A stretch of DNA of 64,000 nucleotides from an uncultured Roseivirgaceae bacterium. Its GTDB lineage: Bacteria > Bacteroidota > Bacteroidia > Cytophagales > Cyclobacteriaceae. The DNA is taken from assembly GCA_964350505.1 (NCBI GenBank), contig CAYGKL010000001.1, positions 13,675-77,674 of the forward strand, given 5' to 3'. A model generated the notes under the pieces. The model was not told the DNA's origin. It saw only the letters and a list, made by a program, of their open reading frames with translations, and ran no database searches. Positions 1,877-36,833 of this stretch are shown in pieces. Position numbers and translations under genes: made by a program. Each line of letters opens with the position of its first letter. Positions within the stretch are counted from its first letter, which is position 1.

Positions 1877-3904
1877 ATGAAAAAGTATCTCCTATTCTCC
1901 TTCGCTCTTTTTCTTCTCAGTGGATGTTTAGAAAAGCCAATGACTGAAATTGAAGAAACTGTAAATGAATCTTCTAGCTTCGACTTTAATACCACACAGG
2001 ATGTTCAATTAATCGTGAAGATGACTGATGGTAACGGAAGTCCATTTGCTGGATTAAAGTTCTCGATCTATGAGCATATCAATGACGAAAAAGGTAAAAA
2101 ATTATTTACAGCAGTTACCAATAGCACTGGTAATTTCAAGCAGTATGTTAAACTACCAGCCTATTTTGAAAGCGTTTTAATTGAAACCAATTTCATAGGA
2201 ATACCCAACAATATCGCTGTACCATTATTGAACAACACGATTGAGCTAGATTACAGTAATGGTCAATTGAACTCCGCAGTAGTTGAAAGCAATTCTTCAA
2301 GTCAACAGGGATCTGCAGCGAATCAATCCTATTCGATAAACGGCATGACTTTCAATTATATGGATTCATATAGTTCAGCTGGCGTACCTGCTAATTTAGA
2401 ACCTGAAAGAGATATTATCAGCGCAAGTTTACTGCAATACATTAATGCCTCCCTTCCAGAGTCGCAGCCTGTACCAGTTTATCACCCAACATATTTAGCG
2501 AATGGTAAAAAGACGACTTTGGATATCATTGAAACAGCAGATGTATGGTTAACTTTCGTACATGAAGGAGCTGGATGGAGAAATGCCATTGGTTTTTATA
2601 CTTACCAAACGACAAGCCCACCACAAACTCTCGATGATATTAGCACCATAAATATAGCCTTTCCGAACCTGTCGTTTATTGGTTCTGGTGGTGCCCTTAT
2701 TTCTGGAGATAAAATTAAACTAGGAAGGTTTGAACCTGGAGTTTCTCTCGGTGTAGTTCTATTAGCAGATGGTTGGGATGGTTCCAATTCCGAAAACTTC
2801 AATCACATTGTGTTTGCCGATAAGCAATTAAACCCTGAGCCAAATGATGACCTAAAACAACACAATGTACTTCTTTGGGATGCAGAAAATGAGCTTTTCT
2901 TGATAGGTTTTGAAGACGTTAGAAGAGACGATATTCCTTTCAGATGTGATCAGGATTTCAATGATGCTATTTTGTTTGTCTCTTCCAATCCTGTGAGAGC
3001 CATTAGCACTGAAAACGTTAGCCCTGTTGACAAACCAGGAACTTTGGATACAGATGGTGACGGTATTAATGACATCTTGGATGAATTCCCTAATGACCCT
3101 GAAAAGGCATATACAAGCTACTACCCTTCTTCCAGCACTTTTGGAAGCTTTGCCTTTGAAGATAACTGGCCAGATTATGGAGATTATGATTTCAATGACC
3201 TAGTTGTTGACTATCAGTTTAAGCATTCTCTTAATGCTAATAATGAGGTGGTAGAAATGGAGTCTAAATTTAAGGTAAGAGCCATAGGTGCCGGTTTTAG
3301 AAATGGATTTGGTTTTGCAACCAACCTACTTCCTTCTGAAATACTGTCCAGTACGGGTCATGTGGTGAATAGTCCCATTATAAAACTTAATACCAACGGT
3401 ACTGAGCAAAACCAAGACAATGCAGTATTCATTGTTTCAAACAACGTTCACGATCTATTCAACAATTCAGGATTTATTAATACCCAAGACGCAGATGCGC
3501 CAGTTGAAGATCAAATGGTTACACTCATAACTGTATTTAATGGTCCAAAAACATATGCAGATATAGGCCCTGCACCTTATAATCCTTTCTTAATCATAAG
3601 CCAAGACAGAGGGCGCGAGGTACACTTACCAGGGTACCAACCGACTAACTTAATGAATAGAGACTTCTTCGGGACGTTGGATGACAATTCTGACCCATCA
3701 AAAGGTATTTATTATAGATCCAAAACGGATTTACCATGGGCCATTCATCTACCTGAAAGCTTTGAATATCCAAAAGAGAAAGTAGATATCCGAAGTGGAC
3801 ACCTAAGATTCAAAGATTGGGCTCAGAGCTCTGGTTACAGCTATATGGATTGGTATAGAGACCAGCAAGGTTACAGAAACACTAGTCAATTATTTAAGAA
3901 ATAG
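1877..3904 (+). CDS. LruC-domain (DUF4842-like) surface lipoprotein with DUF4114-like domain
   Basis: Lipobox LLSGC; GFED...DFNDAI motif; DTDGDGINDILDEFPNDP Ca-binding repeat; FEDNWPDYGDYDFNDLVV and LPWAI...YPKE motifs of LruC domains. Confidence 0.8.
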   Translation: MKKYLLFSFALFLLSGCLEKPMTEIEETVNESSSFDFNTTQDVQLIVKMTDGNGSPFAGLKFSIYEHINDEKGKKLFTAVTNSTGNFKQYVKLPAYFESVLIETNFIGIPNNIAVPLLNNTIELDYSNGQLNSAVVESNSSSQQGSAANQSYSINGMTFNYMDSYSSAGVPANLEPERDIISASLLQYINASLPESQPVPVYHPTYLANGKKTTLDIIETADVWLTFVHEGAGWRNAIGFYTYQTTSPPQTLDDISTINIAFPNLSFIGSGGALISGDKIKLGRFEPGVSLGVVLLADGWDGSNSENFNHIVFADKQLNPEPNDDLKQHNVLLWDAENELFLIGFEDVRRDDIPFRCDQDFNDAILFVSSNPVRAISTENVSPVDKPGTLDTDGDGINDILDEFPNDPEKAYTSYYPSSSTFGSFAFEDNWPDYGDYDFNDLVVDYQFKHSLNANNEVVEMESKFKVRAIGAGFRNGFGFATNLLPSEILSSTGHVVNSPIIKLNTNGTEQNQDNAVFIVSNNVHDLFNNSGFINTQDADAPVEDQMVTLITVFNGPKTYADIGPAPYNPFLIISQDRGREVHLPGYQPTNLMNRDFFGTLDDNSDPSKGIYYRSKTDLPWAIHLPESFEYPKEKVDIRSGHLRFKDWAQSSGYSYMDWYRDQQGYRNTSQLFKK

Positions 3905-4151: not shown

Positions 4152-4910
4152 GTGAATAAGAGAACAACAACAATCGTCAAAAGAGCATTCGATATTGCCT
4201 TCGCTGGCACGCTTATTTTGCTTATTAGCCCTATACTGATTTTAGTGTCTATAGCAATCCGCTTAGACTCTAAAGGTCCTATTTTCTATTATTCATACAG
4301 AGTGGGGCAAAACTATAAGATTTTCAAGTTCTACAAGTTCAGGTCGATGCGCACGGATGCAGACAAATTAGTAGATAATCTAAAACACCTGAATCAATAC
4401 GGTGCTGATATTAAAAATGAGCTGGAAGAATTTGAATTAACTAGACACACCATTGCCTATCATGCGAACGATCCAATCATGATCCGCGATGAAAAATATG
4501 CCCAGGTACAACACTTTGATAATCACAAACAACAAGACAATAGCAATTCATTTGTGAAGTTCGTTAACGACCCAAGAATTACAAGAATCGGAAAGCTGAT
4601 TAGAAATAGTAGCATCGATGAATTGCCTCAACTCTTTAACATTCTAAAAGGCGATATGTCAGTAGTTGGCAACAGACCTCTCCCTCTTTACGAAGCAGAG
4701 AAACTAACTACCGATGATCGTGTGGGTCGTTTTTTAGGCCCAGCAGGTCTTACAGGTCTTTGGCAAGTAACAGAACGTGGCAAGGACAATGTGGATCCTG
4801 AAAACCGCGTAAAGCTTGATATTGAGTATGCAGAAAACCATAGCCTTTGGATGGATTTGAAAATTCTAGTCAAAACTCCAATCGCAGCCTTTCAACATGA
4901 AAACGTATAA
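4152..4910 (+). CDS. Priming polyprenyl-phosphate sugar transferase (WcaJ/Bac_transf family)
   Basis: KRAFDI, DSKGPIFY, KFRSM, DPRITRIG...SIDELPQLFNILKGDMSVVGNRP and GLTGLWQV motifs; internal insertion of about 70 aa. Confidence 0.92.
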   Translation: MNKRTTTIVKRAFDIAFAGTLILLISPILILVSIAIRLDSKGPIFYYSYRVGQNYKIFKFYKFRSMRTDADKLVDNLKHLNQYGADIKNELEEFELTRHTIAYHANDPIMIRDEKYAQVQHFDNHKQQDNSNSFVKFVNDPRITRIGKLIRNSSIDELPQLFNILKGDMSVVGNRPLPLYEAEKLTTDDRVGRFLGPAGLTGLWQVTERGKDNVDPENRVKLDIEYAENHSLWMDLKILVKTPIAAFQHENV

Positions 4911-4913
4911 GTT

Positions 4914-6074
4914 ATGAAAAGGCTAATTCAACAATTAACCAGACCGAATTCTGGTCACAAATACCTTCCATTTGTCGATGGTATAAGATTCATAGCCATC
5001 ATGCCAGTGGTGTTATTACATGCCAATGAACGCTTTTTAAGGTATGTCTATGGCGAAGAAAACTTATCAGGCATTGGTGATCAAATGAATTACATCATTA
5101 GCCGTGGCGCTATTGGTGTAATGATTTTCTTCGCTCTGAGTGGTTTTGTTTTAGCACTTCCCTTTGCCAAAGGCACTACAAACTTCAGTTATAAAACTTA
5201 TTTCAGCCGTAGGTTAGAAAGGCTAGAGCCTCCCTACATCTTCTGGATGAGCCTTTTTGCTGTTATTCTATTCTTTCAATCCGGAATTGGAATCGCAGAA
5301 ATGGCAGGTCATTATTTCAGCAGCATTTTCTATCTACATAATATTGTCTATAGCGACTTCCCAATCATTAACCCTGTGGCTTGGTCGTTAGAAGTAGAAA
5401 TTCAGTATTACCTGATGGCACCATTTATAGCCATCACATATTTCAATCAAAAAGATGAATTGACAAGAAGGTTAGTACTTAGCTTATTGCTACTCTTTTT
5501 CATTGTTTATCAGCATGTTCTTGGCTTTCAATTTCAGCCCTTTAGAGCATCTATTTTAGGTCAGCTTCAGCATTTCCTTATTGGTCTTTTAGCGGCCGAT
5601 TTGTACACGCACAGCAAGAACTGGTCTTCAAAAAGGACTTATTTATGGGATATTATTGGGCTAATTTCTATCCCCGTAATGATGTTCACCTGGACAGACG
5701 ATCTAGAAAAAGCTTTACTCTTTTCCCCCGCTCTTTTGAGCTTCTTTATCAGCACATTTAAAGGTAGAATCATCCCTCAAATTCTATCTTATAAATGGAT
5801 TCCAGTGATTGGTGGAATGTGTTACACCATATACCTTACCCACTTACCTTTGCTAGAATTAATGTATTCACTCATCGGTAAAATCGGTTACTCAACGACA
5901 TATCTATCAGGTCTATCGATAAGTCTAATTCTTACCCTCCCAATCATCTTACTTAGTAGTATAATCTTTTATCGGGTCATTGAAAGACCTTTCATGAAGA
6001 AAAATGGAATGAGTCAGATCATTGATAAACTCAGAACTCTAACCGGTAGAAGATTAGCTAAAACAGAAAGATAA
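4914..6074 (+). CDS. Acyltransferase family 3 (membrane O-acyltransferase)
   Basis: DGIRFIA, FFALSGF, RRLERL, WSLEVEIQYY and YTIYLTH motifs; multiple TM segments. Confidence 0.9.
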   Translation: MKRLIQQLTRPNSGHKYLPFVDGIRFIAIMPVVLLHANERFLRYVYGEENLSGIGDQMNYIISRGAIGVMIFFALSGFVLALPFAKGTTNFSYKTYFSRRLERLEPPYIFWMSLFAVILFFQSGIGIAEMAGHYFSSIFYLHNIVYSDFPIINPVAWSLEVEIQYYLMAPFIAITYFNQKDELTRRLVLSLLLLFFIVYQHVLGFQFQPFRASILGQLQHFLIGLLAADLYTHSKNWSSKRTYLWDIIGLISIPVMMFTWTDDLEKALLFSPALLSFFISTFKGRIIPQILSYKWIPVIGGMCYTIYLTHLPLLELMYSLIGKIGYSTTYLSGLSISLILTLPIILLSSIIFYRVIERPFMKKNGMSQIIDKLRTLTGRRLAKTER

Positions 6075-6075: not shown

Positions 6076-6792
6076 ATGAAACGATTCTTACTTACCATCG
6101 GCTGCTTAATCTCCTTCAACCTAGCTAGTAAAGCTCAAGTAGAGGTGCAAGGCTTAAGTATTGAAAACCTGAGACCAGTTGAAGAGCTTGTGACCATTGC
6201 CATCGAGCGTTCATCTGATATTAAAGCATTAAATGTATCTCAACTTCAAAAAGATCAGGAAATAGCTATCGACAAAAAGAAGTGGTTACAACATTTATCT
6301 CTAGCCGCTGGCGTCAATTACGGAAATGGTATTGTGGCCGACCAACTTACAGGAGATCAAGTTGGAACTTCCCTCACCTATTTAGCCAGACAAAATGTAA
6401 CCTATAATATAGGTTTTAACATCAGACTCCCTTTCACCGAAGTGAGCTCAAGAAAAAACGTCATCAAGATCAAGTCTTTAGAAATTGAAAAACTAGACCA
6501 TCTAAAGACTAGCCAAGAAGACGTGCTGAGAAAAGAAATCATTCAAGTTTATTCTAATCTCAAGCATTTTATCACTTCAATTGAAGTCCAGTCGGAAGTA
6601 GTAGAATCAAATGAAATGGCGCTAACCATTGCAGAAGGGTACTTCAAAGCAGGCAAAATTGGAATGGAACAATACAGAATGGCAGTTGAATCTCGGTACT
6701 CCTCAAAACTGGAGTTTGAAAAGGCTAAAAATGAAGCATGGTTAGCCTATAACACATTGAAAGCTATTGTTGGAGAAGAAATTTTGAAATAA
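6076..6792 (+). CDS. TolC/OEP-family outer-membrane protein with a single OEP repeat
   Basis: Signal peptide; helix, two amphipathic beta-strands (LSLAAGVNYG, YNIGFNIRLPF), long helices, YFKAGKI motif; only 238 aa. Confidence 0.7.
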   Translation: MKRFLLTIGCLISFNLASKAQVEVQGLSIENLRPVEELVTIAIERSSDIKALNVSQLQKDQEIAIDKKKWLQHLSLAAGVNYGNGIVADQLTGDQVGTSLTYLARQNVTYNIGFNIRLPFTEVSSRKNVIKIKSLEIEKLDHLKTSQEDVLRKEIIQVYSNLKHFITSIEVQSEVVESNEMALTIAEGYFKAGKIGMEQYRMAVESRYSSKLEFEKAKNEAWLAYNTLKAIVGEEILK

Positions 6793-6795: not shown

Positions 6796-8859
6796 ATGAC
6801 TATCATAGAAATCATCAGGTTACTTGCTCGTTACTTTCACTTCATTGCAGGAACTGCCATTCTATTGGCCTTCCTGGTAATCTACAGCACAAAGGATAGC
6901 AAGAAAGAGTATTCGACTCACACGTTACTTAACACTGGTCTTATTTCAGGTTATAGTATTGAAAGCAATTCAAGCGGAAGAATTGATTATGCCAAAACCA
7001 ATAATGAGCTAGAAAACCTTATTAACATAGCTACTGCTTACGAGACCAATAAAGAGCTTTCAGCACGTTTAATGGCCCACTTGCTCATTGCACAAAGGGA
7101 CAATAAACTGAAATTACTTCCAGATAACTTGTCTGACTTTGAACAAACACTCCAACACTTAGAAATCAACATTACTAATCAAGACTCAGAAATATCTGTT
7201 TATCAAAAACTTGTAAACATCCGTGAAGAAGATCAATTCAATGAAGTCTATCTAATTGCCAACTCGAAGAATCAATTTTTTGGCATTGAACAGTTAGAGA
7301 ACATTACCGTGATTAGAGAAGGCAGTAGTGACATGATACGCATGGAATACTCCTCTTTCGATCCTTACTTAACCCAAAAAACATTGGAGTTACTGACCGA
7401 CATTTTCATGTCTAAGCAAACCACTATCAAAGAAGGTCAGAGCGACTCAGTAATCGAATTCTTTGAATCATCTGTGGAGAAGTCATCCATGAGATTGAAG
7501 TCGGCAGAGGATCAATTACTGAATTTCAGAGTAAACAACCAAATAATTAACTACTATGAGCAAACTCGCTTTATATCAGGCAATAAAGAAGAGCTAGACA
7601 AACAATATCAAGATGAATTAAAAATTCAAGCTGGTGCTAAATCTGCCTTAAATAAAATTGAATTAGAGGTATCTGATAAGGGAATATTATCGAGCCTTCA
7701 ATCAAGGTTAGCCGATAATACAGGAATCATTTCAAAATATTCTACCGAATTAGCAACGCTAGAACTGACCACAGATTCTATTCCTAGTTCTGCATTAATC
7801 ATTCAAAAGTCATTATTGGAATCAAATATTGATTCATTGAAGCGTCAGATGACAAACATCGCTGATGAGATGCTATTTGCTTACCAAACACCAGAGGGAA
7901 TTGAAACCAAAGATTTACTTACTCAATGGCTCAATTACACTATTGTAAAAGAGGAATCGTCTGCTAAACTATCAGTTATGAAGACCAGGCAGGCTGAATA
8001 TGAGAAAATTTACGATCGCTATGCTCCTCTTGGCTCTACCCTCAAAAGACTTGAAAGAGAAATTGATGTAGCCGAAAGAGAATACCTTGAGAACTTACAT
8101 AGTTTCAATCAGGCCAGACTTCATAAATACAGTATGATGATGTCATCGAATATTAAAGTGATTGATGCTCCATACTACCCAGTTAAGCCTGAAAAGTCTA
8201 AACGCATGATGATGGTGATTCTAGCTTTTATGGTGGGTATCATTTTACCAACCAGTATAATCATTGCGGTAGAGCTAATGGATAGCACACTTAAAAACCC
8301 TGAACATGCTTGCCTTCAAACAGGCCTTAATCTAGGCGGTTTACTACCTAAGGTAAACCCTAAAATGAGTAAGAAAATCAACCTAGAGGCTTTGAATAAG
8401 CAAGCATTAAACCTTTTTATCCAAGAACTAAGGGCCAATGCAAAAGGATCGAAACGTCCGAAAAGAATCATGCTTTTTAGCCCAGAAAATGGCGAAGGAA
8501 AAACTTACCTCAAAGAAGAACTAAACAAGCATTTTAGCTTTCTTTCAGAGGGAGAAAATCCAGAATTCACCTTCCTAGAACTGCAACCTATTCTTCATAA
8601 CCCTTATACAGAAGAGCAACTAGCAGAAGGCGACATCCATGTACTTGTAGTTCGTGCCAATAGAAAATGGACCGCTTCAGACAAACACGCCTTAAAGGTT
8701 TACAAAAAGATTGCGGGTAAGAAGCCCTTCCTATTCTTGAATGCTGTAACAACAGAAGTAATGGAAGAAGTGATTGGAGAAATACCAAAGAAAAGAAGCT
8801 GGTTGAGAAGCCATGTTAGGCAAATTTTAGTTCACGGTTTCAAACCTTCAACCATATGA
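6796..8859 (+). CDS. GumC/Wzc-like polysaccharide co-polymerase with degenerate BY-kinase tail
   Basis: Two TM segments flanking a long coiled-coil periplasmic region; VIDAPYYPVKP motif before TM2; Walker A-like SPENGEGKT. Confidence 0.8.
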   Translation: MTIIEIIRLLARYFHFIAGTAILLAFLVIYSTKDSKKEYSTHTLLNTGLISGYSIESNSSGRIDYAKTNNELENLINIATAYETNKELSARLMAHLLIAQRDNKLKLLPDNLSDFEQTLQHLEINITNQDSEISVYQKLVNIREEDQFNEVYLIANSKNQFFGIEQLENITVIREGSSDMIRMEYSSFDPYLTQKTLELLTDIFMSKQTTIKEGQSDSVIEFFESSVEKSSMRLKSAEDQLLNFRVNNQIINYYEQTRFISGNKEELDKQYQDELKIQAGAKSALNKIELEVSDKGILSSLQSRLADNTGIISKYSTELATLELTTDSIPSSALIIQKSLLESNIDSLKRQMTNIADEMLFAYQTPEGIETKDLLTQWLNYTIVKEESSAKLSVMKTRQAEYEKIYDRYAPLGSTLKRLEREIDVAEREYLENLHSFNQARLHKYSMMMSSNIKVIDAPYYPVKPEKSKRMMMVILAFMVGIILPTSIIIAVELMDSTLKNPEHACLQTGLNLGGLLPKVNPKMSKKINLEALNKQALNLFIQELRANAKGSKRPKRIMLFSPENGEGKTYLKEELNKHFSFLSEGENPEFTFLELQPILHNPYTEEQLAEGDIHVLVVRANRKWTASDKHALKVYKKIAGKKPFLFLNAVTTEVMEEVIGEIPKKRSWLRSHVRQILVHGFKPSTI

Positions 8860-9983
8860 AAAAGACCATAGTATGCCATAGCTTCCCTGCATGGGACACC
8901 CCTTATATTAAATCAACCATTGAGCTTCTTAAACAGCTGAGTAAAGACCACAGGGTGATCATGATTGACTATCACTACACCATTAAAGACTTGTTTTTCA
9001 ATAAGATAAGTCCTGTAAAACAAATTTCAGGTGTTGGGTCACGCGTCAGAATGATACAAACAGAATATGGTCAAATCGAGGTGATATCCACTCCTCCTGT
9101 AATTCCCATTAACTGGATTAAGAACAAAAAACTATTCCATTTCATGGCTAAAGTTAATAGTCGTTTGATCGGTAGAACCATTAAAAAACAGCTAACCAAG
9201 CTCGGTGTTCAAGACTATACATTGATCAATGCTTTTAACCCCATTTATGGCTTTTTCATGAACGACATTTTCAAGCCTCTAAAGACCATCTATTACTGCT
9301 ATGACGAAATAGCAGCTACTGAATGGTCGGGTAAGCATGGAGCCACTTATGAGCAGGCTTACATTCCAATGGTAGATGAGGTAATCTGCACGAGCAGCAC
9401 ATTAAAAGCTCACAAACAAGAATTTGCCAAAGAAGTGAAATTCATACCAAATGGAGTTAATCTGGACATCTTCTTGGCTACAGATAAAGAGATTACCAAT
9501 GGCAAAACGATAGGCTATATTGGAGCAATTGACAACAGAATTGACTTTGAATTAATAGACTACTGCGCTAAAACCTTGAGCGATCATCACTTTCAGTTTT
9601 TCGGCCCTATAAAGACAGAAATACCTATCCTGCCTGCCAATGTAACATTTCTGGGCTCGGTAGATCAAAGCAAGCTGCCTGAGAAAATTGAGCAGTTCGA
9701 TGTTTGTCTTATCCCATTTGTGAAGACTCAATTGACTGAAGCCATTTACCCGCTGAAGATCAACGAATACCTCGCCATGGGTAAGCCAGTAGTTACCACC
9801 CACTTTTCAGATCTTTCAGACTTTAAAAAAGTGGCTGAAATTGCAGAGAGTAAAGAAGATTTCTTGAAGGCTATTAAACGTTCTATCCGGTACAACTCCA
9901 GATTAAAAGTTCAAGACCGAATTGAGTTTGCAAAAGGAAACTCTTGGGAGAATCGTGCTCAAGAGTTTGCCGAAGCGATTTAG
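8856..9983 (+). CDS. GT-B glycosyltransferase (TuaH-like)
   Basis: IYYCYDE, IPNGV, GYIGAI and PLKINEYLAMGKPVV motifs. Confidence 0.85.
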   Translation: MKKTIVCHSFPAWDTPYIKSTIELLKQLSKDHRVIMIDYHYTIKDLFFNKISPVKQISGVGSRVRMIQTEYGQIEVISTPPVIPINWIKNKKLFHFMAKVNSRLIGRTIKKQLTKLGVQDYTLINAFNPIYGFFMNDIFKPLKTIYYCYDEIAATEWSGKHGATYEQAYIPMVDEVICTSSTLKAHKQEFAKEVKFIPNGVNLDIFLATDKEITNGKTIGYIGAIDNRIDFELIDYCAKTLSDHHFQFFGPIKTEIPILPANVTFLGSVDQSKLPEKIEQFDVCLIPFVKTQLTEAIYPLKINEYLAMGKPVVTTHFSDLSDFKKVAEIAESKEDFLKAIKRSIRYNSRLKVQDRIEFAKGNSWENRAQEFAEAI

Positions 9984-10077: not shown

Positions 10078-11559
10078 ATGAAAACCAAGAGCGTAATTAA
10101 TTCTGAACCAACAGGAGCCGCCATTTTGGCCAGTCCACAAGGCTGGTTGATTATGATTGCTCTTTTAGGGTTTAGCTTTTTGGTAATTAGCTTTATTGGT
10201 TTGGCAGGTGGAATGCTGCTCATTGGTTTGCCTATCGGCATGGTGGTGTTGGCCATGATTTGGAACAAACCAAAGCTTGGTGTTTGGGGAAGTCTTATCA
10301 TGGGCTTCTTTTCAGCTGGAATTACGCGTTATGTACCAGGGCCTTGGGGCTTAACGGTAGACATTCTTTTAGCCTTATCTTGGCTAAGTGTTATCCTTAA
10401 CAAATCAATTCAAATCAAGTGGAAAGAAGCTAAAAACCCGATCGTAGCACTGACAACTTTCTGGATGCTTTATCTTGTTTTAGAGATTGTTAACCCTAGC
10501 GGTAATGGTCTTGTGGCTTGGTTTTATGCCATGCGAGGTATTGGCTTCTATCAAGCACTCACAGTTCCACTAATCTTTCTTCTTTTCAGAAAACAAAAAG
10601 ACACAGAGCAATTCTTTAATGCGCTCATCTACTTCTCTTTAATTGGTACTATCTGGGGCTTTAAACAGCAAATATTTGGAACAGATGGTGCTGAAGATCA
10701 TTGGCTTTATGCTGAGGAACATCACGAAGAACATATTCTTCATGGCGTTCTAAGGGTGTTTTCATTCTATTCAGATGCTGGGAGTTTTGGTGCATCTCAA
10801 GCCATGATGTCATTAATGTCGGGCATACTTTTTATGGGGCCTTACAAAGGCATTAAGAAATTCAAGTATCTCATTTTCGCCATTATCTTTCTTATGGGCT
10901 TTGGCATTTCTGGAACTAGAGGAGCTTTGGCAGTGCCTTTGGCCGGAGGGATTGCCTATCTTATTCTCATCAAGAACTTCAGAATACTAATTAGCGGTTT
11001 CAGTGGCATGGTCTTAGTTTTTGTGATCCTTAAGTATACCTTCCTCTTTCAGGGAGTTGAACAGGTAAGGCGCATGAGAACAGCCTTGGACCCAAATAAC
11101 AAGTCGTTGAGCGTGCGTTATGATAATCAGAAAATATTTGCTCGCTATTTATCTAACAAACCTTTTGGAGCAGGTATAGGCACAGCTGGTTTCTGGGGGG
11201 CTAGGTTCAACCCTGATTCACTTTTAGCCAATACAGCTACAGATAGTTGGTTCGTAAAAATCTGGGTGGAAACAGGCCCTGTGGGGCTTACTATTCATAT
11301 AGCATTTCTAGGTTTTATTCTTGGCTATGGAGGACAGAAAATCATGAGGATGCGTGACCCTAAAAACCGAACACAGGCCTCTGCACTTTATGCCATGTTT
11401 GCCGGAGCCATTCTTGCCAGTTATGGCAACCAGGTACTCATTCAAATGCCAACGGGTATCATTCTCAATTTTGCAATCCCTTATATTTTTCTAATTGCCG
11501 ATAGAGATAAGAAGCAATGGCTGAAGTCTATCAAGAAGCCCAAGGAGTTGAGCGTTTAG
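10078..11559 (+). CDS. O-antigen ligase/Wzy-family polymerase
   Basis: About 12 TM segments; ISGTRGA, RVFSFYSDA, KPFGAGIG and DSWFVKIWVETGPVG (Wzy_C-like) motifs. Confidence 0.8.
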   Translation: MKTKSVINSEPTGAAILASPQGWLIMIALLGFSFLVISFIGLAGGMLLIGLPIGMVVLAMIWNKPKLGVWGSLIMGFFSAGITRYVPGPWGLTVDILLALSWLSVILNKSIQIKWKEAKNPIVALTTFWMLYLVLEIVNPSGNGLVAWFYAMRGIGFYQALTVPLIFLLFRKQKDTEQFFNALIYFSLIGTIWGFKQQIFGTDGAEDHWLYAEEHHEEHILHGVLRVFSFYSDAGSFGASQAMMSLMSGILFMGPYKGIKKFKYLIFAIIFLMGFGISGTRGALAVPLAGGIAYLILIKNFRILISGFSGMVLVFVILKYTFLFQGVEQVRRMRTALDPNNKSLSVRYDNQKIFARYLSNKPFGAGIGTAGFWGARFNPDSLLANTATDSWFVKIWVETGPVGLTIHIAFLGFILGYGGQKIMRMRDPKNRTQASALYAMFAGAILASYGNQVLIQMPTGIILNFAIPYIFLIADRDKKQWLKSIKKPKELSV

Positions 11560-11698: not shown

Positions 11699-12877
11699 AT
11701 GAAAACTCTATTCGAATCCTTACTTCTTTTGCCAATTGCCTACTTGACCTTTTCAAGTATGTATCAATTGATACTAGCGCTGGCTTCACATTCAAAAACT
11801 AGAAGTCCTCAAAACAGCAACTTTGGTTTCGCTCGCTTTTTGATTTTGGTTCCAGCCTATAAAGAAGATGCCATCATCAAATATAGCGCTGCAAAGAACT
11901 TGCTAGTCAAATACGAATACCCGAGAGAGCATTTCGATTTTGTAGTCATTGCCGATCAGCTTCAAGAAAGTACTAAACTAGCCTTGAAAAATGGAGGCGC
12001 TAAAGTGCATAATGTAAACTTTGATAAAAGCACCAAAGTAAAATCGCTTCAAAGTGCCATAGCTAAATACAATAAAGGCTATGATGCTGTCATCGTATTA
12101 GATGCTGATAATGTAATGGAGAAGGGCTTTCTTTTCAAAGCTAATCAACTATTACAGTCAGGCTATAGATCCATTCAAGGATTGAGAAAAGCGGCCAATG
12201 CCAATACTTCAACAGCCCTAATGGATGGCCTTTCAGAAACAGCCAATACGGAAATGCTTTGTAAGGGAGCGAATCGCTTAGGCTTTTCCTCCAAGTTATC
12301 AGGTTCAGCCATGGTTTTCGATTTCGAGCTTTTTAAGAGCACTATTAATCAATGCCAAGCCATTGGTGGCTTCGATAAAGAAATGGAGCTCATGCTCACC
12401 AAAAACAGAGAATATATTCACTACTCAGCTGAGCTTGCTGTGCTAGATCAAAAAGTTACTTCAACTAAAGCTTTCACAAAACAAAGAGGCAGATGGATTG
12501 AAGCACAATACACCTTCTTTAAAAAGTCATTTAGAGAAAGTATCAAAGAATTAGCAAAAGGTAATTTCGACTTCTTTCATAAGGTGATGCAATTAGCGCT
12601 TCCGCCACGTGCAGTAGCACCCTTTGCAATCATGTTACTGACCATTATTGGTTTACTTCTATCCTCTTCGCTCATCATCATTAGCGGGTCGATAGCCTTA
12701 GTTGCTCTGATAATGGCATACTTAATCGTATTACCACTTAAGCCTCTCTTTCGTCAATCGATAAAGATTGGGCTGAGTATACCGCAGATTGGTTTTGCCG
12801 CAATAAAGTCTCTTCTGCTGATGCGTAAATCGCGCAACGAGTTTATTCATACAAAACACGAACTAATAGAAGGATAA
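11699..12877 (+). CDS. GT2 glycosyltransferase (membrane-associated)
   Basis: LVPAYKED, VIAD, VLDADN, GSAM and QRGRW motifs; flanking TM helices. Confidence 0.88.
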   Translation: MKTLFESLLLLPIAYLTFSSMYQLILALASHSKTRSPQNSNFGFARFLILVPAYKEDAIIKYSAAKNLLVKYEYPREHFDFVVIADQLQESTKLALKNGGAKVHNVNFDKSTKVKSLQSAIAKYNKGYDAVIVLDADNVMEKGFLFKANQLLQSGYRSIQGLRKAANANTSTALMDGLSETANTEMLCKGANRLGFSSKLSGSAMVFDFELFKSTINQCQAIGGFDKEMELMLTKNREYIHYSAELAVLDQKVTSTKAFTKQRGRWIEAQYTFFKKSFRESIKELAKGNFDFFHKVMQLALPPRAVAPFAIMLLTIIGLLLSSSLIIISGSIALVALIMAYLIVLPLKPLFRQSIKIGLSIPQIGFAAIKSLLLMRKSRNEFIHTKHELIEG

Positions 12878-13038
12878 TGTTTGAAGGAATGCCTTGGCCA
12901 GTCGTTATACCCATTGCCATTTTAGTAATGGTCTATAGCGTCACACTTTCTAATAGAGAAGAAAAAGTGGCCATAGTGAAGCGAATAAAGCAATTAAAAA
13001 AGCAAAAAAGTAAACTGAAATCTAATGGACTCAAATAG
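12877..13038 (+). CDS. Small single-pass membrane protein (53 aa), absent from the ORF track
   Basis: TAATG overlap with the GT2 stop; MFEGMPWPVVIPIAILVMVYSVTLSNREEKVAIVKRIKQLKKQKSKLKSNGLK; fills the gap up to the GT4 gene. Confidence 0.6.
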   Translation: MFEGMPWPVVIPIAILVMVYSVTLSNREEKVAIVKRIKQLKKQKSKLKSNGLK

Positions 13039-14182
13039 AACGCTTAAGATATTACTAATCTCTAAAACTTTGCCCTGGCAGTTTAAGGGAGGTATTCAAA
13101 CCCATACTTGGGAGTTGGCCAAGAGTCTTGTAGAGATAGGCCATTCAGTAACAATTCTAAATGGAGGACCTTTTAGATCAAAGACAACCACATTTCTGAA
13201 AGATGGTATTGAAGTGGTCCAAATCCCCTTCTTTCCAGGTAGGTATTTGAAACCTGTTTCACTTTTAGCAGAAGAGTTTTCTTTTAACTGGTCAGTCCTT
13301 ACATGGACGATTAAAAATCATCAACCATTTGATATAATTCATTCTCAAGGGCGCAGTGGTTATTTATTGAGCTTTTTCAAACCGATTAAAAACCGCTTGG
13401 TGAACACTGTGCATGGTTTAATAGATATTGAAAGTCAGCATTGCAAATGGTATAGCCTGAACGCTAATCTGCATAACGCATTTACCAAAAAAGTTGAAAA
13501 CAGATTATATAACAAGGCGGCAAGACTTGTTGCCGTGAGTACTGCTTTAAAGGGAGAACTATCAGAAAAGAGGTTTGTACAACAACCGATTCAAGTGATA
13601 TCTAATGGAGTCAATACGTTCCCTAAAACTCTATCACTTAAGAATAAGGCAGCAAGGTTTCTCTTTATAGGTCGCTTGCATCCAATTAAAGGAATTGCCA
13701 AGATGATTGAACAAATGGACTTGGCGAATGAAAACATTAGCTTAGATATAGTAGGCAATGGAAGTGAAAGAGACGCCATAGTAAGAATTATTGAAGCAAA
13801 AGGCCTACAGAAAAAAGTGAAGCTCTTGGGCGAACTTACTAGCGAAGAGATACACAACATACTCCCACACTACACTGCCCTTGTATTGCCAAGCCTGTAT
13901 GAAACTCAAGGCATTGTATTGCTAGAAGCCAACTCAGAAGGCGTTCCTGTAATAGCATCAGATTTACCTGCCATTCGTGAAACGATTACTCACGGAGAAA
14001 ACGGATTGCTTTGCCCGACAAATAACCCTGTAGCCTTTATTGAGGCAATGAATTACATGGCTAACCATAGACAAGAAGCAGAAATGATGGGATCTATAGG
14101 CCGAATAAAAGTAGAAGCAGAATATAGCTGGAACAAAATAGCTGTGAAAACAGAGTCACTTTATTACTCTATCGCATCATGA
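13025..14182 (+). CDS. GT4 glycosyltransferase
   Basis: GGIQTH, ISNG, FIGRLHPIKG and LPSLYETQGIVLLEA...G.PVIAS motifs. Confidence 0.9.
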   Translation: MDSNRTLKILLISKTLPWQFKGGIQTHTWELAKSLVEIGHSVTILNGGPFRSKTTTFLKDGIEVVQIPFFPGRYLKPVSLLAEEFSFNWSVLTWTIKNHQPFDIIHSQGRSGYLLSFFKPIKNRLVNTVHGLIDIESQHCKWYSLNANLHNAFTKKVENRLYNKAARLVAVSTALKGELSEKRFVQQPIQVISNGVNTFPKTLSLKNKAARFLFIGRLHPIKGIAKMIEQMDLANENISLDIVGNGSERDAIVRIIEAKGLQKKVKLLGELTSEEIHNILPHYTALVLPSLYETQGIVLLEANSEGVPVIASDLPAIRETITHGENGLLCPTNNPVAFIEAMNYMANHRQEAEMMGSIGRIKVEAEYSWNKIAVKTESLYYSIAS

Positions 14183-15471
14183 AAAGAATGCCAAATATCC
14201 GCATAGGAAATACGGTTTACTCCTTCACAGGACAAATTAGTTTTCTACTAACTAACTTTCTCCTTTTCATATATTTAGCCAAAAACTACGACCAGACCAC
14301 CTTTGGCCATTGGGCCATTTTTATCACTACCATTTCCATCTTAGATGGTATGCGACAAGGCTTTACACAAAATGGTCTAGCCAGACTGATTATAAAGCAT
14401 CCAGGAGACAGAGAAATTAGAAGTACTAGCCTACTGCTGAACTATGCCATTGTAATCATTACAAGTATCATTCTTAAGGTCTTAGCTGTACTATCTGATG
14501 AGTCTATCGGTATCCTATACAGCAACGGCTACAAAATATTGATTGTGCTGGCTACCATTCAGTACCTCAATACAGTTTATCAGGCCAATTACCAATTCAG
14601 ACAATATTTCATCATCAACCTGATCTATTTGATCTCATTTGTAAGTGCCATGGCATTTCAAATTTTGGTAATCGGAAAACCTGAGTTAACAACGATCATT
14701 AATCTTATGCTCATCAGTATAGTACCCAACATTGCTTTAGCTATTTATAGAAAGCAGTTCTATATTTTAAAACCAAGAAAGGAGACTGCACTGGCACTGA
14801 TACACTTCGGAAAATACTCTTCTGGAACCAACTTGATGTCCCTTCTTTTTCAACGGGTTGACCTGATCATGATCAATTATTTCTTAGACCCTACGTCTGT
14901 TGCCATTTTCCATTTTGCCACTAAGATTATCAACTATGCAGAGCTTCCGCTTCAAGCATTGTCCCAAGTCATTTATCCTAAAATAGCGACCAGTCACCTG
15001 AGCAATAATGGCACTGAACTTAATAAAACTTATGGTGCCTCCATATTATGGATATTAGCATTCATAATCCCAATGAGCTTAACAGTGATCATATTTAATA
15101 AAACAATTATAACCCTAATAGGATCAGTAAGTTACTTGCCTGCATCTTCAATAATATTGGTGCTGTGTATTGCCACTTTTTTTAAGCCATGGGGACGAGT
15201 TTTCGGACTTACTTTAGACGCAGTAGGAAAACCTAAAGTGAACTTCTATATGCTAGCTTTTAGCCTTATTGTTAATGTAATAATGAATTGGGTTTTAATA
15301 CCGGTTTATGGGATCAATGGCGCGGCAATAGCTACATCATTGAGCATAATTATCACCATCATTATCGGTCAGTTTAATATCAGAAGGACACTCAAGTTTA
15401 ACCCTGTACATGAAGTATTGGAAGCATTCAAAACAATGTATCATTTAAAAATTAGCAAAAAATGGAATTAA
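14179..15471 (+). CDS. Wzx-type oligosaccharide flippase
   Basis: About 12 TM segments; DLIMINYFL and YGINGAAIAT MOP-family motifs. Confidence 0.85.
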   Translation: MKRMPNIRIGNTVYSFTGQISFLLTNFLLFIYLAKNYDQTTFGHWAIFITTISILDGMRQGFTQNGLARLIIKHPGDREIRSTSLLLNYAIVIITSIILKVLAVLSDESIGILYSNGYKILIVLATIQYLNTVYQANYQFRQYFIINLIYLISFVSAMAFQILVIGKPELTTIINLMLISIVPNIALAIYRKQFYILKPRKETALALIHFGKYSSGTNLMSLLFQRVDLIMINYFLDPTSVAIFHFATKIINYAELPLQALSQVIYPKIATSHLSNNGTELNKTYGASILWILAFIIPMSLTVIIFNKTIITLIGSVSYLPASSIILVLCIATFFKPWGRVFGLTLDAVGKPKVNFYMLAFSLIVNVIMNWVLIPVYGINGAAIATSLSIIITIIIGQFNIRRTLKFNPVHEVLEAFKTMYHLKISKKWN

Positions 15472-16277
15472 CATTCGGTTCAGCCCAGATATATACCAGT
15501 GAGAGAATGAAAAACTCTCCTGTTTTAGCCAAAATGTTTCATAAAGTATTTGGTTATACTAACGTTGGCAATTATGCTCGTTTCACGGTATTTAAAGAAT
15601 TAGTCAAAAGCATTTCACTGAAAGAGGATGCCAAAATCTTAGACTTAGGCACCGGATATGGTGAGTACAGCTTTAGTCTTGCAGAGGCTTTGCCACATAG
15701 CGAAGTTCATAGCCTAGATATTGACAGAGACCGTGTTAAATCTGTAGATACGGCTATCGAAAAAAGTGGAATTCAGAATATTCATACCCACTGCACATTT
15801 ACAGAACAACTTGAGGAAAAGGATTTCGATTTTGTATTCTCAGTCGATGTATTCGAACACATTGCCCCTGAAGACATGCCTTTTAAAGCTGTTTATAAAA
15901 GGCTAAGACCAGGTGGTAAATTCATGGTTAAGATGCCTTATGTTACACAAAGGACAATTCTTCCAGAAAATTGGTTTGAAGACCATCATGAATGGTTGGA
16001 AGAAGAACACATAGGTCAGGTCTACGACCTTCATAACCTTAAGAGGCGTTTTGTTGAAGAAGGCTTTAGGGTAATTCATTCTTCGTATTCAGATGGTTGG
16101 TTATCTAGATTAGGTTGGGAAGTAGCCTATTTAGGCAAGAAAGTAGGAATAATAGGTCAGCTTTTAACCTTACCCTTTGCTAAGCTGTGTATCAAATTAG
16201 ATCGTGCAATGCATCTCAATCAATGGGGAAATGCCATTCAAGTAATCGGTGTAAAAGAAGAATCATGTCGCCCTTAG
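15462..16277 (+). CDS. Class I SAM-dependent methyltransferase
   Basis: ILDLGTGYG motif I; FDFVFSVDVFEHI; LRPGG. Confidence 0.85.
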   Translation: MELTFGSAQIYTSERMKNSPVLAKMFHKVFGYTNVGNYARFTVFKELVKSISLKEDAKILDLGTGYGEYSFSLAEALPHSEVHSLDIDRDRVKSVDTAIEKSGIQNIHTHCTFTEQLEEKDFDFVFSVDVFEHIAPEDMPFKAVYKRLRPGGKFMVKMPYVTQRTILPENWFEDHHEWLEEEHIGQVYDLHNLKRRFVEEGFRVIHSSYSDGWLSRLGWEVAYLGKKVGIIGQLLTLPFAKLCIKLDRAMHLNQWGNAIQVIGVKEESCRP

Positions 16278-17143
16278 TCTCAATCATAACAGTTAACTAC
16301 AAACAGGCTCAAGTCACTTGTGAACTCCTTGAGTCAATAGTAAAACTCAATTACTCCAACTTAGAAGTAATTGTAGTAGACAATGCTCAGGAAGGTGATG
16401 ATTCACAACTATACCAAGCCGTTCTTCCATCTGTAAAAGTGTTGAATGCCAAAGAAAATTTAGGCTTTGCAGGTGGCAACAATTTGGGTATTCAACAAGC
16501 AACTGGAGACTTTCTGTTTCTTTTGAACAATGATACAGAACTAGACAATGGCGTGATTGAGTCTTTGCTAAGTAGGTTTACCGAACCAACTATTGCAGCA
16601 GCCTCTCCTATACTCAGGTATTTTGATGAACCGAATAATATTCAATTCGCAGGATTCACCAAAATAAGCTCATTGACAGGCAGAAACGAATTATTAAAAC
16701 AACCTCAGCAATTTACACCTTATGAAACTCCCTACTTTCATGGGGCTGCGGTGATGCTTCGCAAAAGCATTATCGCTGAATGTGGCTTGATGCCAGAGGA
16801 GTTTTTCCTCTACTATGAAGAGTTGGAGTGGTCTAGAAAAATTACAAAATGTGGCTATCAACTTTTAATAGATCCACAAGTTCATGTACTCCATAAAGAG
16901 TCTGTTTCAACTGGAAAAAACAGTCCATTGAAGCTCTATTATCAAACCAGAAATAGAGTTCATTTTATGCGGGCTAAAGACTCTTCGAATTCGTTGCTCT
17001 TTATGCTTTTCTTCCTGTTTATATCAATACCAAAGGGTTTACTCAAATACGGATTACATAGAGAATGGAAGCATTTGAGCGCCTTTTTACAGGCTATTAA
17101 TGATGCGGTGTTCTTCAAGAGATTTGGTTTCAGACCAATTTAA
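16265..17143 (+). CDS. GT2 glycosyltransferase (WbbL/rhamnosyltransferase-like)
   Basis: SIITVNY, VVDN, NLGFAGGNN, LLNND and FFLYYEE motifs. ATG at 16265 is preferred over the track start 16187. Confidence 0.88.
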   Translation: MSPLVSIITVNYKQAQVTCELLESIVKLNYSNLEVIVVDNAQEGDDSQLYQAVLPSVKVLNAKENLGFAGGNNLGIQQATGDFLFLLNNDTELDNGVIESLLSRFTEPTIAAASPILRYFDEPNNIQFAGFTKISSLTGRNELLKQPQQFTPYETPYFHGAAVMLRKSIIAECGLMPEEFFLYYEELEWSRKITKCGYQLLIDPQVHVLHKESVSTGKNSPLKLYYQTRNRVHFMRAKDSSNSLLFMLFFLFISIPKGLLKYGLHREWKHLSAFLQAINDAVFFKRFGFRPI

Positions 17144-17177
17144 TTCATTCAACGAGCAAGAAGGTATGTTCATCGAA
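17144..17177 (+). promoter_or_regulatory. Partial repeat site P6 upstream of the last GT2
   Basis: Cores TCAACG 17149 and TCATCG 17170 (21 bp apart), but no -7 box at +36. Confidence 0.35.
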
Positions 17178-17227
17178 ATTAGAACCCTTATTCAATACAA
17201 ATCGAGTTACTTCAAATAAAAATTAAC

Positions 17228-18406
17228 GTGATGGAAATTTTGTTCTGGACCTCCCTATTTATCATTTTCTATGTATTCGTTGGCTATGGTATTATCATAA
17301 GCCTTCTGGCTAAATTCAAGGATAAGAAGGCTCTTTTAGAGCTGTCTAATGAAGATTTACCTATGATCAGTTTCGTAATTGCAGCCTATAACGAGGAAGA
17401 GATTATCGAAGAAAAGATTCAAAACACTTTAAACCTCAATTACCCAAAAGAGAAACTCCAATTGAAAATAGTAACTGACGGATCTACTGACAGTACTAAT
17501 GCTATAGTGAGTAAATACCCCGAGGTGGAGCTCTGTTTTGAACCTCAAAGAGCGGGAAAAATAGCTGCTGTGAACCGTATAATGCCTGAGATTGAAACTC
17601 CATTTACTGTCTTTTCAGATGCTAATGTTATGATCAATAAAGATGGTATCAGAAATATGATCAGCCATTTCCAGAACAACAGGGTTGGCGCTGTTTCTGG
17701 AGAGAAAACGGTAATGAGTAATGATGCAGATGGCGCAAGTAGCGCAGGTGAGGGATTTTATTGGAAATATGAATCCTATCTGAAGAAGAAGGATGCCGAA
17801 TGGAACACCTTGGTTGGGTCGGCTGGAGAACTTTTTGCCATCAGAACACATCTTTATGAGGCTATTGAAACCAATACACTTATAGAAGATTTTGTATTGA
17901 CTATGAAACTTTCGGCAAAAGGTCATCAAGTGGCCTATGAGCCAAATGCCTTAGCTATGGAAACTGGTTCAGCAAGTATTGAAGAAGAAACAAAACGCAA
18001 GGTGAGAATCTCTGCTGGTGGAATTCAAGCTGTAATTAAGCTTTGGCCACTCTTAAATTTCATGAAATATGGTAAACTCACTTTTCAATATATTTCACAT
18101 CGAGTTCTGAGGTGGACATTAATGCCTTTGGCATTGATTGCAGTGTTTGTGAGCCCTTTCTTTCTTATGGACAATGCTTGGTTCTATAAGATAATCCTAA
18201 GCCTAGAATTAGTCTTCGGATCCTTAGCAATCGCTGGTTATCTAATCAGAAATAAGGAAACCAAGAATAAAGTGCTATATATTCCGTACTACTTTCTTTA
18301 CATGCATTACTGTGTAATACTTGGCTGGATAAAATACTTCAGGGGTAAGCAGCAAGTAACCTGGGAAAAAGCGAAAAGAGCAACTATGCCTCTACAGCAA
18401 GTTTAA
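17228..18406 (+). CDS. GT2 glycosyltransferase (IcaA/PgaC-like processive family)
   Basis: IAAYNEE, VTDGSTD, GKIAA, FSDAN, IED and RKVRI motifs; N- and C-terminal TMs. Confidence 0.88.
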   Translation: MMEILFWTSLFIIFYVFVGYGIIISLLAKFKDKKALLELSNEDLPMISFVIAAYNEEEIIEEKIQNTLNLNYPKEKLQLKIVTDGSTDSTNAIVSKYPEVELCFEPQRAGKIAAVNRIMPEIETPFTVFSDANVMINKDGIRNMISHFQNNRVGAVSGEKTVMSNDADGASSAGEGFYWKYESYLKKKDAEWNTLVGSAGELFAIRTHLYEAIETNTLIEDFVLTMKLSAKGHQVAYEPNALAMETGSASIEEETKRKVRISAGGIQAVIKLWPLLNFMKYGKLTFQYISHRVLRWTLMPLALIAVFVSPFFLMDNAWFYKIILSLELVFGSLAIAGYLIRNKETKNKVLYIPYYFLYMHYCVILGWIKYFRGKQQVTWEKAKRATMPLQQV

Positions 18407-22383: not shown

Positions 22384-22399
22384 TTGGCTTGAGATAGTG

Positions 22400-22489
22400 C
22401 AAAGCAAGCATTAATAACCATATGTGTGACTCAGATTCGTTGAATCGACAGAATGCTTCGATGAATGACAAAATCTTTCGATAAGCTGA
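22400..22489 (-). promoter_or_regulatory. Repeat-type promoter P7 (histidine kinase/LytTR operon)
   Basis: On the minus strand: cores TTATCG (starts 22484), TCATCG (22464), TCAACG (22443); TTGCTTTG starts at 22407, 36 bp after the last core. Confidence 0.62.
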
Positions 22490-29727: not shown

Positions 29728-29848
29728 AGGCAAAAATTGAACTGCAAAGTAAATGAGTTCTGCCTCAAATACCTAATAAAGCCCATTATGGATGAGATTG
29801 CGAATTTACTCCTGAAGCTTCAACATTTTAGTTTAGTTTTGTTACCGA

Positions 29849-36832: not shown

Positions 36833-36833
36833 A

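Follow-up and report, generated by a model that had tools for sequence, protein, structure and literature searches.

A TolC-like gene beside a polysaccharide co-polymerase gene

How does a polysaccharide made by the Wzx/Wzy-dependent pathway leave the cell when its locus carries no gene for an OPX protein (a polysaccharide exporter of the outer membrane)? This question is raised by a stretch of 64,000 nucleotides (hereafter the window) from an uncultured Roseivirgaceae bacterium (assembly GCA_964350505.1, contig CAYGKL010000001.1, positions 13,675 to 77,674), in which an open reading frame (ORF) of the forward strand (6076–6792, starting with ATG) encodes a secreted-type product of 238 amino acids that matches a single repeat of the outer membrane efflux protein (OEP) family, and that we call half-OEP. 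Diderm bacteria bring polysaccharides of the Wzx/Wzy- or ABC-dependent pathways across the outer membrane through a Wza-type alpha-helical pore, through a composite of an OPX protein and a beta-barrel, or through a class-3 OPX protein together with a porin; all three current routes, to our knowledge, use an OPX protein. On balance we cautiously favor the explanation that half-OEP forms a homo-oligomeric, TolC-like duct that replaces the OPX protein and docks on the adjacent co-polymerase. It is the best supported explanation because of the fold of half-OEP, its membrane signature, a deep and invariant synteny, and the lack of OPX genes in the inspected DNA.

Half-OEP corresponds to one repeat of TolC

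The initial annotation of the window had described half-OEP as a protein with only one OEP repeat, composed of two beta-strands and long helices, and both parts of this description hold. Counting the repeats with Pfam gave one match over the full OEP model (PF02321; profile positions 2–187 of 187, residues 36–233, E 1.1e-20, 74.6 bits with a cut-off of 22 bits); no second OEP repeat and no other significant Pfam domain was found in the 238 residues, Poly_export (the PES domain) and SLBB included, and no NCBIfam model matched. The AlphaFold2 (AF2) model built from 19 homologues (predicted local distance difference test, pLDDT, of 78) comprises a helix (35–73), two strands (74–89 and 101–116), a helix of 72 residues (120–191, ∼108 Å) and a return helix (197–232), which is exactly one TolC structural repeat without the equatorial domain. 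When the PDB was searched with this model using Foldseek, solely outer-membrane factors (OMFs) were retrieved at E < 1e-3 (TolC, OprM, CmeC, CusC, MtrE), with TMq values of 0.48–0.58 and a probability of 1.0 for TolC, OprM, and CmeC. On the TolC sequence, the family profile falls on the second repeat (residues 194–392, including the tip between helices H7 and H8), and a profile search of the PDB returned TolC-type chains only. Half-OEP thus shares with TolC, OprM, CmeC, and CusC the succession of a short helix, two long beta-strands, a helix of ∼100 Å and a return helix, as well as a conserved periplasmic tip that contains glycine, and also a Sec signal peptide, whereas these OMFs consist of two tandem repeats (∼420–500 amino acids) plus an equatorial domain, and half-OEP and its family have one repeat and no such domain.

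The Sec signal peptide spans residues 1–20 and is followed by Gln21 (6076–6138), which is invariant in our alignment A1 and conserved at 90% or more in the diverse alignment (A2). In 133 of 163 stand-alone relatives, [AGSTC]-Q comes after a hydrophobic segment. The hydrophobic segment and Gln21 match the Q-rule of Bacteroidetes, by which a glutamine follows the cleavage site of signal peptidase I substrates (PMC5837995), and we therefore predict a signal peptidase I site here. Lipidation at Cys10 was considered and ruled out, the cysteine not being conserved, the lipobox being poor, and Gln21 being invariant.

Conservation within the protein is highest in a predicted transmembrane beta-hairpin (residues 74–120, 6295–6435) with a variable loop (∼84–107). 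In an alignment of 50 diverse relatives, alternating columns contain >85% and <30% hydrophobic residues in strands 74–83 and 108–120. Among the conserved residues are Y82, G83, Y110, G113, and P119; the segment 84–107 is polar and variable. The strand pattern resembles that of the TolC strand LGLGADYTYSNGY. Judged from these columns, the alternation is the pattern of a transmembrane hairpin with a lipid-facing and a lumen-facing side and an external loop.

Between the long helix and the return helix lies the predicted periplasmic tip turn (residues 186–200, 6631–6675), with the motif A186-E187-x-x-F190-x-x-G193 (G193 in 92%, F190 in 84%, A186 in 80%, and E187 in 76% of the 50-sequence family alignment). 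It aligns with the H7/H8 tip of TolC, EAGFSVGTS (EAGYSVGTR in Salmonella ST50). The tip of TolC is the part that meets the adaptor hairpins, and its homolog in half-OEP is a candidate docking site.

A family of single-repeat proteins

Had the second repeat been lost through a frameshift in this strain only, which the initial annotation named as grounds for abandoning its reading, close relatives would be expected to differ in length. They do not: 52 close homologs, many of them named ‘TolC family protein [Roseivirga]’, have ∼237–240 amino acids at 46–100% identity. An exhaustive HMMER search among 1.84 billion cluster representatives (clustered at 50% identity) matched the family profile in 695 clusters when E was limited to 1e-3 and in 341 when it was limited to 1e-10. 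Among the 150 top-ranking representatives, 127 consist of 215–311 amino acids with a single matched stretch. Because this length is conserved across homologs, the single repeat of half-OEP is a real feature and not a local truncation, and with the flanking genes also intact, a strain-specific frameshift or pseudogene is ruled out.

A related explanation takes half-OEP for the decaying remnant of a full-length TolC, or for a subunit that forms hetero-oligomers with a two-repeat OMF. The closeness of the profile to the C-terminal repeat of TolC would fit the loss of an N-terminal half. Yet hundreds of clusters, some at an identity as low as 19%, show conservation of both length and sequence, the intact flanking genes leave no space for a lost repeat, and no second OEP gene was found in the scanned ORFs of the window or in related loci. 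We regard this explanation as extremely improbable, its pseudogene version being largely refuted.

By the names available, the family is spread over Bacteroidota (Roseivirga, Roseivirgaceae, Cyclobacteriaceae including Algoriphagus, Reichenbachiella, Saprospiraceae, and metagenome-assembled genomes (MAGs) labeled ‘Bacteroidota bacterium’), and a genome scan with alignment A1 reached Roseivirgaceae and Cytophagia only. One member (P0057, QNL22673.1) and its co-polymerase are deposited under an alphaproteobacterial name, ‘Hyphobacterium sp. CCMP332’. The signal peptide of QNL22673.1 obeys the Bacteroidota Q-rule; the record may be mislabeled, or the locus may have been transferred. Searching read runs for RNA evidence, we found the sequence only in DNA runs, from biofilm and lake-water metagenomes. 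The window itself stems from a biofilm metagenome.

An invariant gene neighbor: a PslE/Wzc-type co-polymerase

The gene downstream of half-OEP (6796–8859, forward strand) begins 3 nucleotides past its stop codon and encodes a polysaccharide co-polymerase (PCP) of type 2a with 687 amino acids, named ‘GumC family’ at NCBI (GNVR, PF13807, E 6.6e-8; TIGR03007, E 3e-19). The direct adjacency that had been described for the window extends to every locus fetched: in 31 of 31 loci, reached via half-OEP at 100–19% identity or via the partner protein, half-OEP lies directly upstream of an orthologous PslE/Wzc-type PCP of 680–740 amino acids. Isolates among them are Roseivirga spongicola, R. pacifica, R. 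thermotolerans, Algoriphagus kandeliae, and Reichenbachiella versicolor, and MAGs are included as well.

The flanking genes had been described as those of a Wzx/Wzy system, and the Pfam scan bears this out. In addition to the PCP with its GNVR domain, the locus encodes a small priming phosphoglycosyl transferase (4152–4910, forward; Bac_transf, PF02397, E 3.7e-59; TIGR03025, E 4.5e-72), a Wzy-type polymerase (10078–11559, forward; Wzy_C, PF04932, E 4.9e-10), and a Wzx-type flippase (14179–15471, forward; Polysacc_synt_3, E 3.6e-11, with MatE and Polysacc_synt), and hence the whole core of the Wzx/Wzy-dependent pathway. Priming transferase, Wzx, Wzy, and glycosyltransferases are likewise present in the related loci wherever the contig is long enough.

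The partner is a true PCP-2a-type co-polymerase, PslE/Wzc-like. A phmmer search of the PDB retrieved PslE of Pseudomonas aeruginosa (9v6l, deposited as eight chains; E 7.7e-13 over residues 173–673), followed by Escherichia coli Wzc (E 4e-4). The AF2 model (40 homologs, pLDDT 84) shows a first transmembrane segment (TM1, 14–31), an alpha/beta base (39–187), a periplasmic helical domain (190–450), a second transmembrane segment (TM2, 469–495), and a cytoplasmic P-loop domain (502–680). Its top Foldseek matches are Wzc and Wza–Wzc complexes (E 8e-15), and no HlyD/AcrA-type adaptor is among the matches at E ≤ 0.001. For this GumC-like protein, to which a long coiled coil had been attributed, the model shows long periplasmic helices (190–247, 253–295, and 297–324, then, after a break at 325–331, 332–362, 368–409, and 412–450).

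The break marks the predicted tip of the helical hairpin (residues 325–331, TTDSIPS; 7768–7788, forward). HMMER aligns ‘...RTyTDDAPPV’ of PslE, which contains Y318, opposite ‘...LT.TDSIPSS’ of the co-polymerase, and it is this tyrosine, at the motif-3 tip of PslE, that stacks against the PES motif in PslD, an OPX protein (PMC13434223). Periplasmic conservation in the co-polymerase peaks elsewhere, at the helix break of residues 247–258 (7534–7569; N-x-I-I-N-Y-Y-E-Q-T-R), a block that is invariant in the 40 homologs.

On the cytoplasmic side, a Walker-A-like motif (SPENGEGKT, 8479–8505, forward) has S562, E567, G568, and K569 invariant in the 40 homologs, and the C-terminal tail KKRSWLRSHVRQILVHGFKPSTI is devoid of tyrosines, so that there is no tyrosine cluster for autophosphorylation as in bacterial tyrosine kinases. 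Since the Walker A lysine is invariant and the tyrosine cluster is missing, the protein may be an ATPase or a pseudokinase and not an autophosphorylating kinase of that type. No Wzb-type phosphatase was found in the window.

Compared with the PslD–PslE and Wza–Wzc systems (PDB 9v6l, 9r64; PMC13434223, PMC12881504), the partner is homologous over TM1, periplasmic helices, TM2, and P-loop domain. It shares with PslE, a pseudokinase, the lack of a C-terminal tyrosine cluster and a hairpin tip that aligns with the OPX-binding motif 3, while the Walker A lysine, lost in PslE, is kept here. The predicted outer-membrane partner also differs, being TolC-like.

No OPX proteins or efflux partners in the inspected DNA

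The initial annotation had also stated that no Wza/OPX protein is encoded. This stands for the locus, the 64-kb window, and 16 related loci; we make no such claim for the whole genome. The Pfam scan covered the window ORFs of at least 150 amino acids, leaving out 13025–14182 and 15462–16277 (both named by synteny) and 18392–19120, and it found no Poly_export/SLBB (OPX) domain, no second OEP, and no HlyD-type adaptor in the ORFs scanned. Nor did an OPX domain occur in the 16 related loci for which gene tables were available, with flanks of ±10 kb. A tblastn search of the window and the 31 loci with E. coli Wza retrieved nothing (best E 0.77), a weak test given that it had no positive control, and a regular expression for the PES motif, likewise run over the window and the 31 loci without positive control, gave no match.

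These results bear on the possibility that a Wza/PslD-type OPX protein encoded elsewhere in the genome exports the polymer, half-OEP being a gate, a porin-like terminal pore, an exporter of some other small product, or an anchor. It would be compatible with the extent of the inspected DNA (64 kb of this genome and ±10 kb of the related ones) and with the fact that wza/wzc-type loci are common in Bacteroidota; a CpsB-type tyrosine phosphatase gene ∼7 kb upstream in Algoriphagus also hints at other capsule machinery nearby. However, canonical OPX genes adjoin the genes of their cognate PCPs (wza–wzc, pslD–pslE, gumB–gumC), and in all 31 loci this slot is filled by half-OEP. OPX–PCP contacts are moreover cognate-specific (PMC13434223), and the inspected flanks contain no OPX gene, to which the weak Wza search adds little. 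We consider an OPX protein acting from elsewhere fairly unlikely.

An efflux pump is ruled out as the setting of half-OEP, as the Pfam scan of the window ORFs found neither an HlyD/MFP adaptor gene nor an RND, ABC, or MFS pump gene in the locus. This separates half-OEP from the OMFs, which work with an HlyD/AcrA adaptor and an RND, ABC, or MFS pump, whereas half-OEP is encoded together with a PCP, Wzx, and Wzy.

Recurrent fusion of half-OEP to an AT3 acyltransferase

Upstream of half-OEP lies a gene for an integral inner-membrane acyltransferase of the AT3 type (4914–6074, forward; Acyl_transf_3, PF01757, E 1.8e-31), whose stop codon ends 1 nucleotide before the half-OEP start (TAA-C-ATG). In 23 of the best 150 representatives of the family, the two are fused into proteins of 612–665 amino acids with an N-terminal Acyl_transf_3 domain, another difference from the OMFs. 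One fusion belongs to the isolate Reichenbachiella versicolor (622 amino acids) and others to MAGs; among the related loci, single ORFs of this kind are present in L012 (8032–9939), L030 (8136–10004), and L031 (7993–9852). The initial annotation had not mentioned these recurrent fusions, which add a topological constraint and a rival explanation. In a rough neighbor-joining tree they form 21 separate fusion-only clades, interspersed with unfused genes within the half of the family that is associated with AT3, and this scatter suggests repeated fusion and fission at the AT3/half-OEP junction.

The fusions raise the possibility that half-OEP is a periplasmic accessory of AT3, comparable to the SGNH domain of OafA-type O-acetyltransferases, that aids acylation and not export. 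Indeed, the fused relatives are built like AT3-SGNH proteins (OafA/OafB), in which the N-terminal AT3 domain is followed by an additional transmembrane segment and then by a C-terminal domain in the periplasm, and a single nucleotide separates the two genes of the window; the number of fusions and of separate clades, and the occurrence of one fusion in an isolate, would also speak for such a role. The C-terminal domain is, however, an OEP repeat and not an SGNH hydrolase, the junction resembles a cleavable signal peptide, and the half-OEP fold has no catalytic features and keeps its membrane-type amphipathic hairpin. Furthermore, AT3 is variable across loci, as is a lipoprotein of the LruC type (absent cases in L004–L006, L009–L011, and L027); since both come and go, neither is needed for the pair of half-OEP and partner. 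Half-OEP is kept beside the PCP in all of these loci, which lack AT3, and its role is therefore independent of AT3. We find an accessory role in acylation quite unlikely; the fusions speak for an expression tightly coupled to that of AT3, and not for functional dependence, because the AT3-less loci keep half-OEP.

The fusions keep the hydrophobic segment, with an x-Q site in 19 of 23 according to a regular expression and in 22 of 23 by eye. Only ∼12–15 residues link the hydrophobic segment to the first helix, and an uncleaved fusion would consequently be unable to reach the outer membrane. The retained Q-rule site points to cleavage, and half-OEP is probably released from the fusions by signal peptidase; the simplest reading would be that the eleventh transmembrane helix of the fusion doubles as an internal signal peptide. 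The fusion may then be a naturally cleaved polyprotein that combines an inner-membrane enzyme and an outer-membrane-type subunit.

Alternatively, half-OEP could remain at the inner membrane or close to it, either without being cleaved or by re-associating, and serve as a helical periplasmic scaffold around the PCP. The position of half-OEP shortly after a transmembrane segment in the fusions and the low AF2 confidence for the hairpin would be in line with such a scaffold. It is at odds with the conserved cleavage motif and its invariant Gln21, with a hairpin that has the dyad hydrophobic pattern of outer-membrane protein strands in the most conserved part of the protein, and with structural neighbors that are all outer-membrane channels. 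To us a scaffold at the inner membrane seems very unlikely.

A putative export route and its number of subunits

Returning to the favored explanation of a duct that replaces the OPX protein, we propose that the 238-amino-acid product would be exported by Sec and cleaved before Gln21, AT3-fused half-OEP being released after translocation via the retained signal peptidase site. Each chain would contribute one TolC repeat, i.e., one beta-hairpin and one and a half long helices, and several copies would join head-to-tail into an outer-membrane barrel continued by a periplasmic alpha-helical tunnel of ∼100 Å. The conserved tip (AE..F..G) would meet the hairpin tips of the PslE/Wzc-type co-polymerase, and polymerization would push the polymer made by Wzy out of the co-polymerase cage and into the duct, as proposed for PslD–PslE. 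The outer-membrane exit of this Wzx/Wzy-dependent polysaccharide would then be the half-OEP duct and not an OPX protein. The dimensions are compatible with this arrangement: in the PslD–PslE structure, PslE protrudes by ∼156 Å and PslD by ∼74 Å in a periplasm of ∼230 Å (PMC13434223), and a half-OEP tunnel of ∼100–108 Å together with a PCP of ∼130–156 Å fits the same ∼230 Å.

How many chains would be needed? A hairpin of only two strands does not hold in a membrane by itself and needs an oligomeric barrel, and for half-OEP, with its single hairpin, homo-oligomerization is accordingly a strong inference from its sequence. TolC itself is a trimer, with a 12-strand barrel and a 12-helix tunnel. 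With one repeat per chain, half-OEP would form a ring of at least six chains and not a trimer. The hexamer proposed in the initial annotation follows from the analogy to TolC (three times two repeats) and is unproven. In AcrAB–TolC, six adaptor hairpins meet six TolC repeats, one per repeat (review PMC8277102). By the same logic an octamer, with a 16-strand barrel and a 16-helix tunnel, would be at least as plausible as a hexamer, because PslE and Wzc, the homologs whose structures have been solved, form octamers (PMC13434223) and a one-repeat subunit is free to match them.

Several points weigh against such a duct. The AF2 model of half-OEP has low confidence precisely in the hairpin (pLDDT ∼47–58, residues 71–120). 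The AT3 fusions, if uncleaved, would tether half-OEP at the inner membrane, which is incompatible with insertion into the outer membrane. Octameric PCP-2a homologs would leave a TolC-like hexamer symmetry-mismatched, and we know of no 16-strand TolC-type barrel. The absence of OPX genes refers to 64 kb of the genome and to the flanks of related loci, which leaves room for an OPX gene elsewhere, and oligomerization, localization, and interaction of half-OEP are steps that we infer.

Relation to known export systems and significance

In the organization of its locus, half-OEP resembles the OPX proteins (Wza, PslD, GumB; PF02563): it occupies the same slot upstream of the PCP gene, it would bridge the distance from the tip of the PCP to the outer membrane and across it in the same way, and its periplasmic reach is similar (74–100 Å). 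The folds are unrelated, half-OEP having no PES/Poly_export or SLBB domain, and its predicted pore is a beta-barrel in contrast to the alpha-helical pore of Wza; no separate porin would be involved, unlike in class-3 OPX systems.

TolC-type ducts carrying a glycan or a glycolipid have precedents. DevBCA–HgdD exports a glycolipid through a TolC-type duct. The nearest precedent is cyanobacterial cellulose export, which, as cited in PMC8892547, uses an HlyD-like and a TolC-like protein (Maeda et al., 2018). Both differ from the present locus in relying on a two-repeat TolC and a classical adaptor, and in being synthase- or ABC-dependent, with neither PCP nor Wzx/Wzy. In full-text literature searches we encountered no paper that describes OMFs with a single repeat or hexameric OMFs, or that places TolC-like proteins in a Wzx/Wzy pathway, and TolC is not named as a component in recent surveys and structures of OPX proteins.

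If our explanation is correct, a conserved module of PCP and TolC-like protein without OPX would constitute a fourth outer-membrane route. Capsule translocons and tripartite efflux pumps, so far compared by analogy, with the PCP/OPX pair long likened to the pair of adaptor and TolC (PMC6003464), would be physically joined. An OMF review attributes the two repeats to a gene duplication and describes the C-terminal repeat as more conserved and possibly ancestral; the single-repeat family would then be a living example of the state thought to be ancestral to two-repeat OMFs. An OMF with one repeat makes the oligomeric plasticity of TolC and its duplication history directly testable, and an 8-mer barrel would be larger than any known TolC. 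In its full form, our proposal is that of an undescribed Wzx/Wzy export route of Bacteroidota, in which a PslE/Wzc-type ring would sit directly on a single-repeat TolC-like duct with no OPX protein, possibly with matching copy numbers (1:1, an 8-mer), the family representing the living one-repeat state and the AT3 fusion a polyprotein cut by signal peptidase. We would give this combination slightly less than an even chance. The only annotation of these genes is ‘TolC family protein’ for half-OEP and ‘GumC family protein’ for the co-polymerase, and genome surveys that rely on OPX to score capsule and exopolysaccharide (EPS) loci will therefore overlook such loci in Bacteroidota from marine and biofilm settings.

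Further genes of the locus and of the window

At the head of the locus, a single-domain response regulator of 131 amino acids, consisting of a REC domain only, is encoded upstream of the priming transferase (1425–1820, forward). A Response_reg gene occupies the same position in related loci, with tblastn matches in 24 of 31, and it directly adjoins the priming transferase gene in L009–L011. Its position recalls a recently described single-domain regulator that activates an EPS phosphoglycosyl transferase in Myxococcus (PMC12802240).

It is followed by the gene for the LruC-type lipoprotein (1877–3904, forward; 675 amino acids), with DUF4114 (E 1e-17) and DUF4842 (E 4e-58; TIGR04456, LruC_dom, E 7.5e-75) and a lipobox in its N-terminus, MKKYLLFSFALFLLSGC. 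This lipoprotein is encoded 5′ of the priming transferase in the Roseivirga, Algoriphagus, and Reichenbachiella loci and is absent from the more distant L009–L011. Its sole PDB relative is an uncharacterized ‘putative lipoprotein’ (3oqq, E 3e-11), and the LruC-type protein might assist the duct as an accessory at the outer membrane.

Downstream of the co-polymerase, all on the forward strand, the locus encodes a GT4-type glycosyltransferase whose start overlaps the PCP stop by 4 nucleotides (8856–9983; Glyco_trans_1_4, E 7e-9), a GT2 glycosyltransferase (11699–12877; Glyco_tranf_2_3, E 4e-18), a GT4 glycosyltransferase assigned by synteny (13025–14182; the corresponding gene of L001–L003 has Glyco_transf_4/Glycos_transf_1), an S-adenosylmethionine-dependent methyltransferase likewise assigned by synteny (15462–16277; Methyltransf_11/12/25 in L002), and, at the end of the cluster (16187–18406), two GT2 glycosyltransferases (16187–17143 and 17228–18406; Glycos_transf_2, E 1e-22, and Glyco_tranf_2_3, E 1e-17). 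Two genes of the reverse strand converge on this end, the ORF 18392–19120 and a PAS/GAF histidine kinase of 1,077 amino acids (19174–22407). The Algoriphagus locus L029 carries a regulator with Response_reg and LytTR domains at the place matching the ORF 18392–19120, which, by this analogy, is likely the counterpart of that regulator and part of the regulation of the locus.

Farther away, a separate envelope-modification cluster (27921–32192) encodes an LPG_synthase_TM protein, a GT2 glycosyltransferase, an ArnT/PMT-like glycosyltransferase, and a PAP2 phosphatase. A row of reverse-strand genes (36149–42506) comprises a TPR protein of 1,049 amino acids (39357–42506), an ORF of 554 amino acids without Pfam match, an ORF of 270 amino acids, and a MotA/ExbB channel protein. 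The 1,049-amino-acid ORF has the size of an RND pump, and the ORF of 340 amino acids adjoining it encodes the delta subunit of DNA polymerase III; the identities of the genes rule out that this row is an efflux pump, as its size might suggest. Finally, a subtilase encoded on the reverse strand (24224–25810) carries a Por_Secre_tail, the signal for type IX secretion, consistent with an origin from Bacteroidota.

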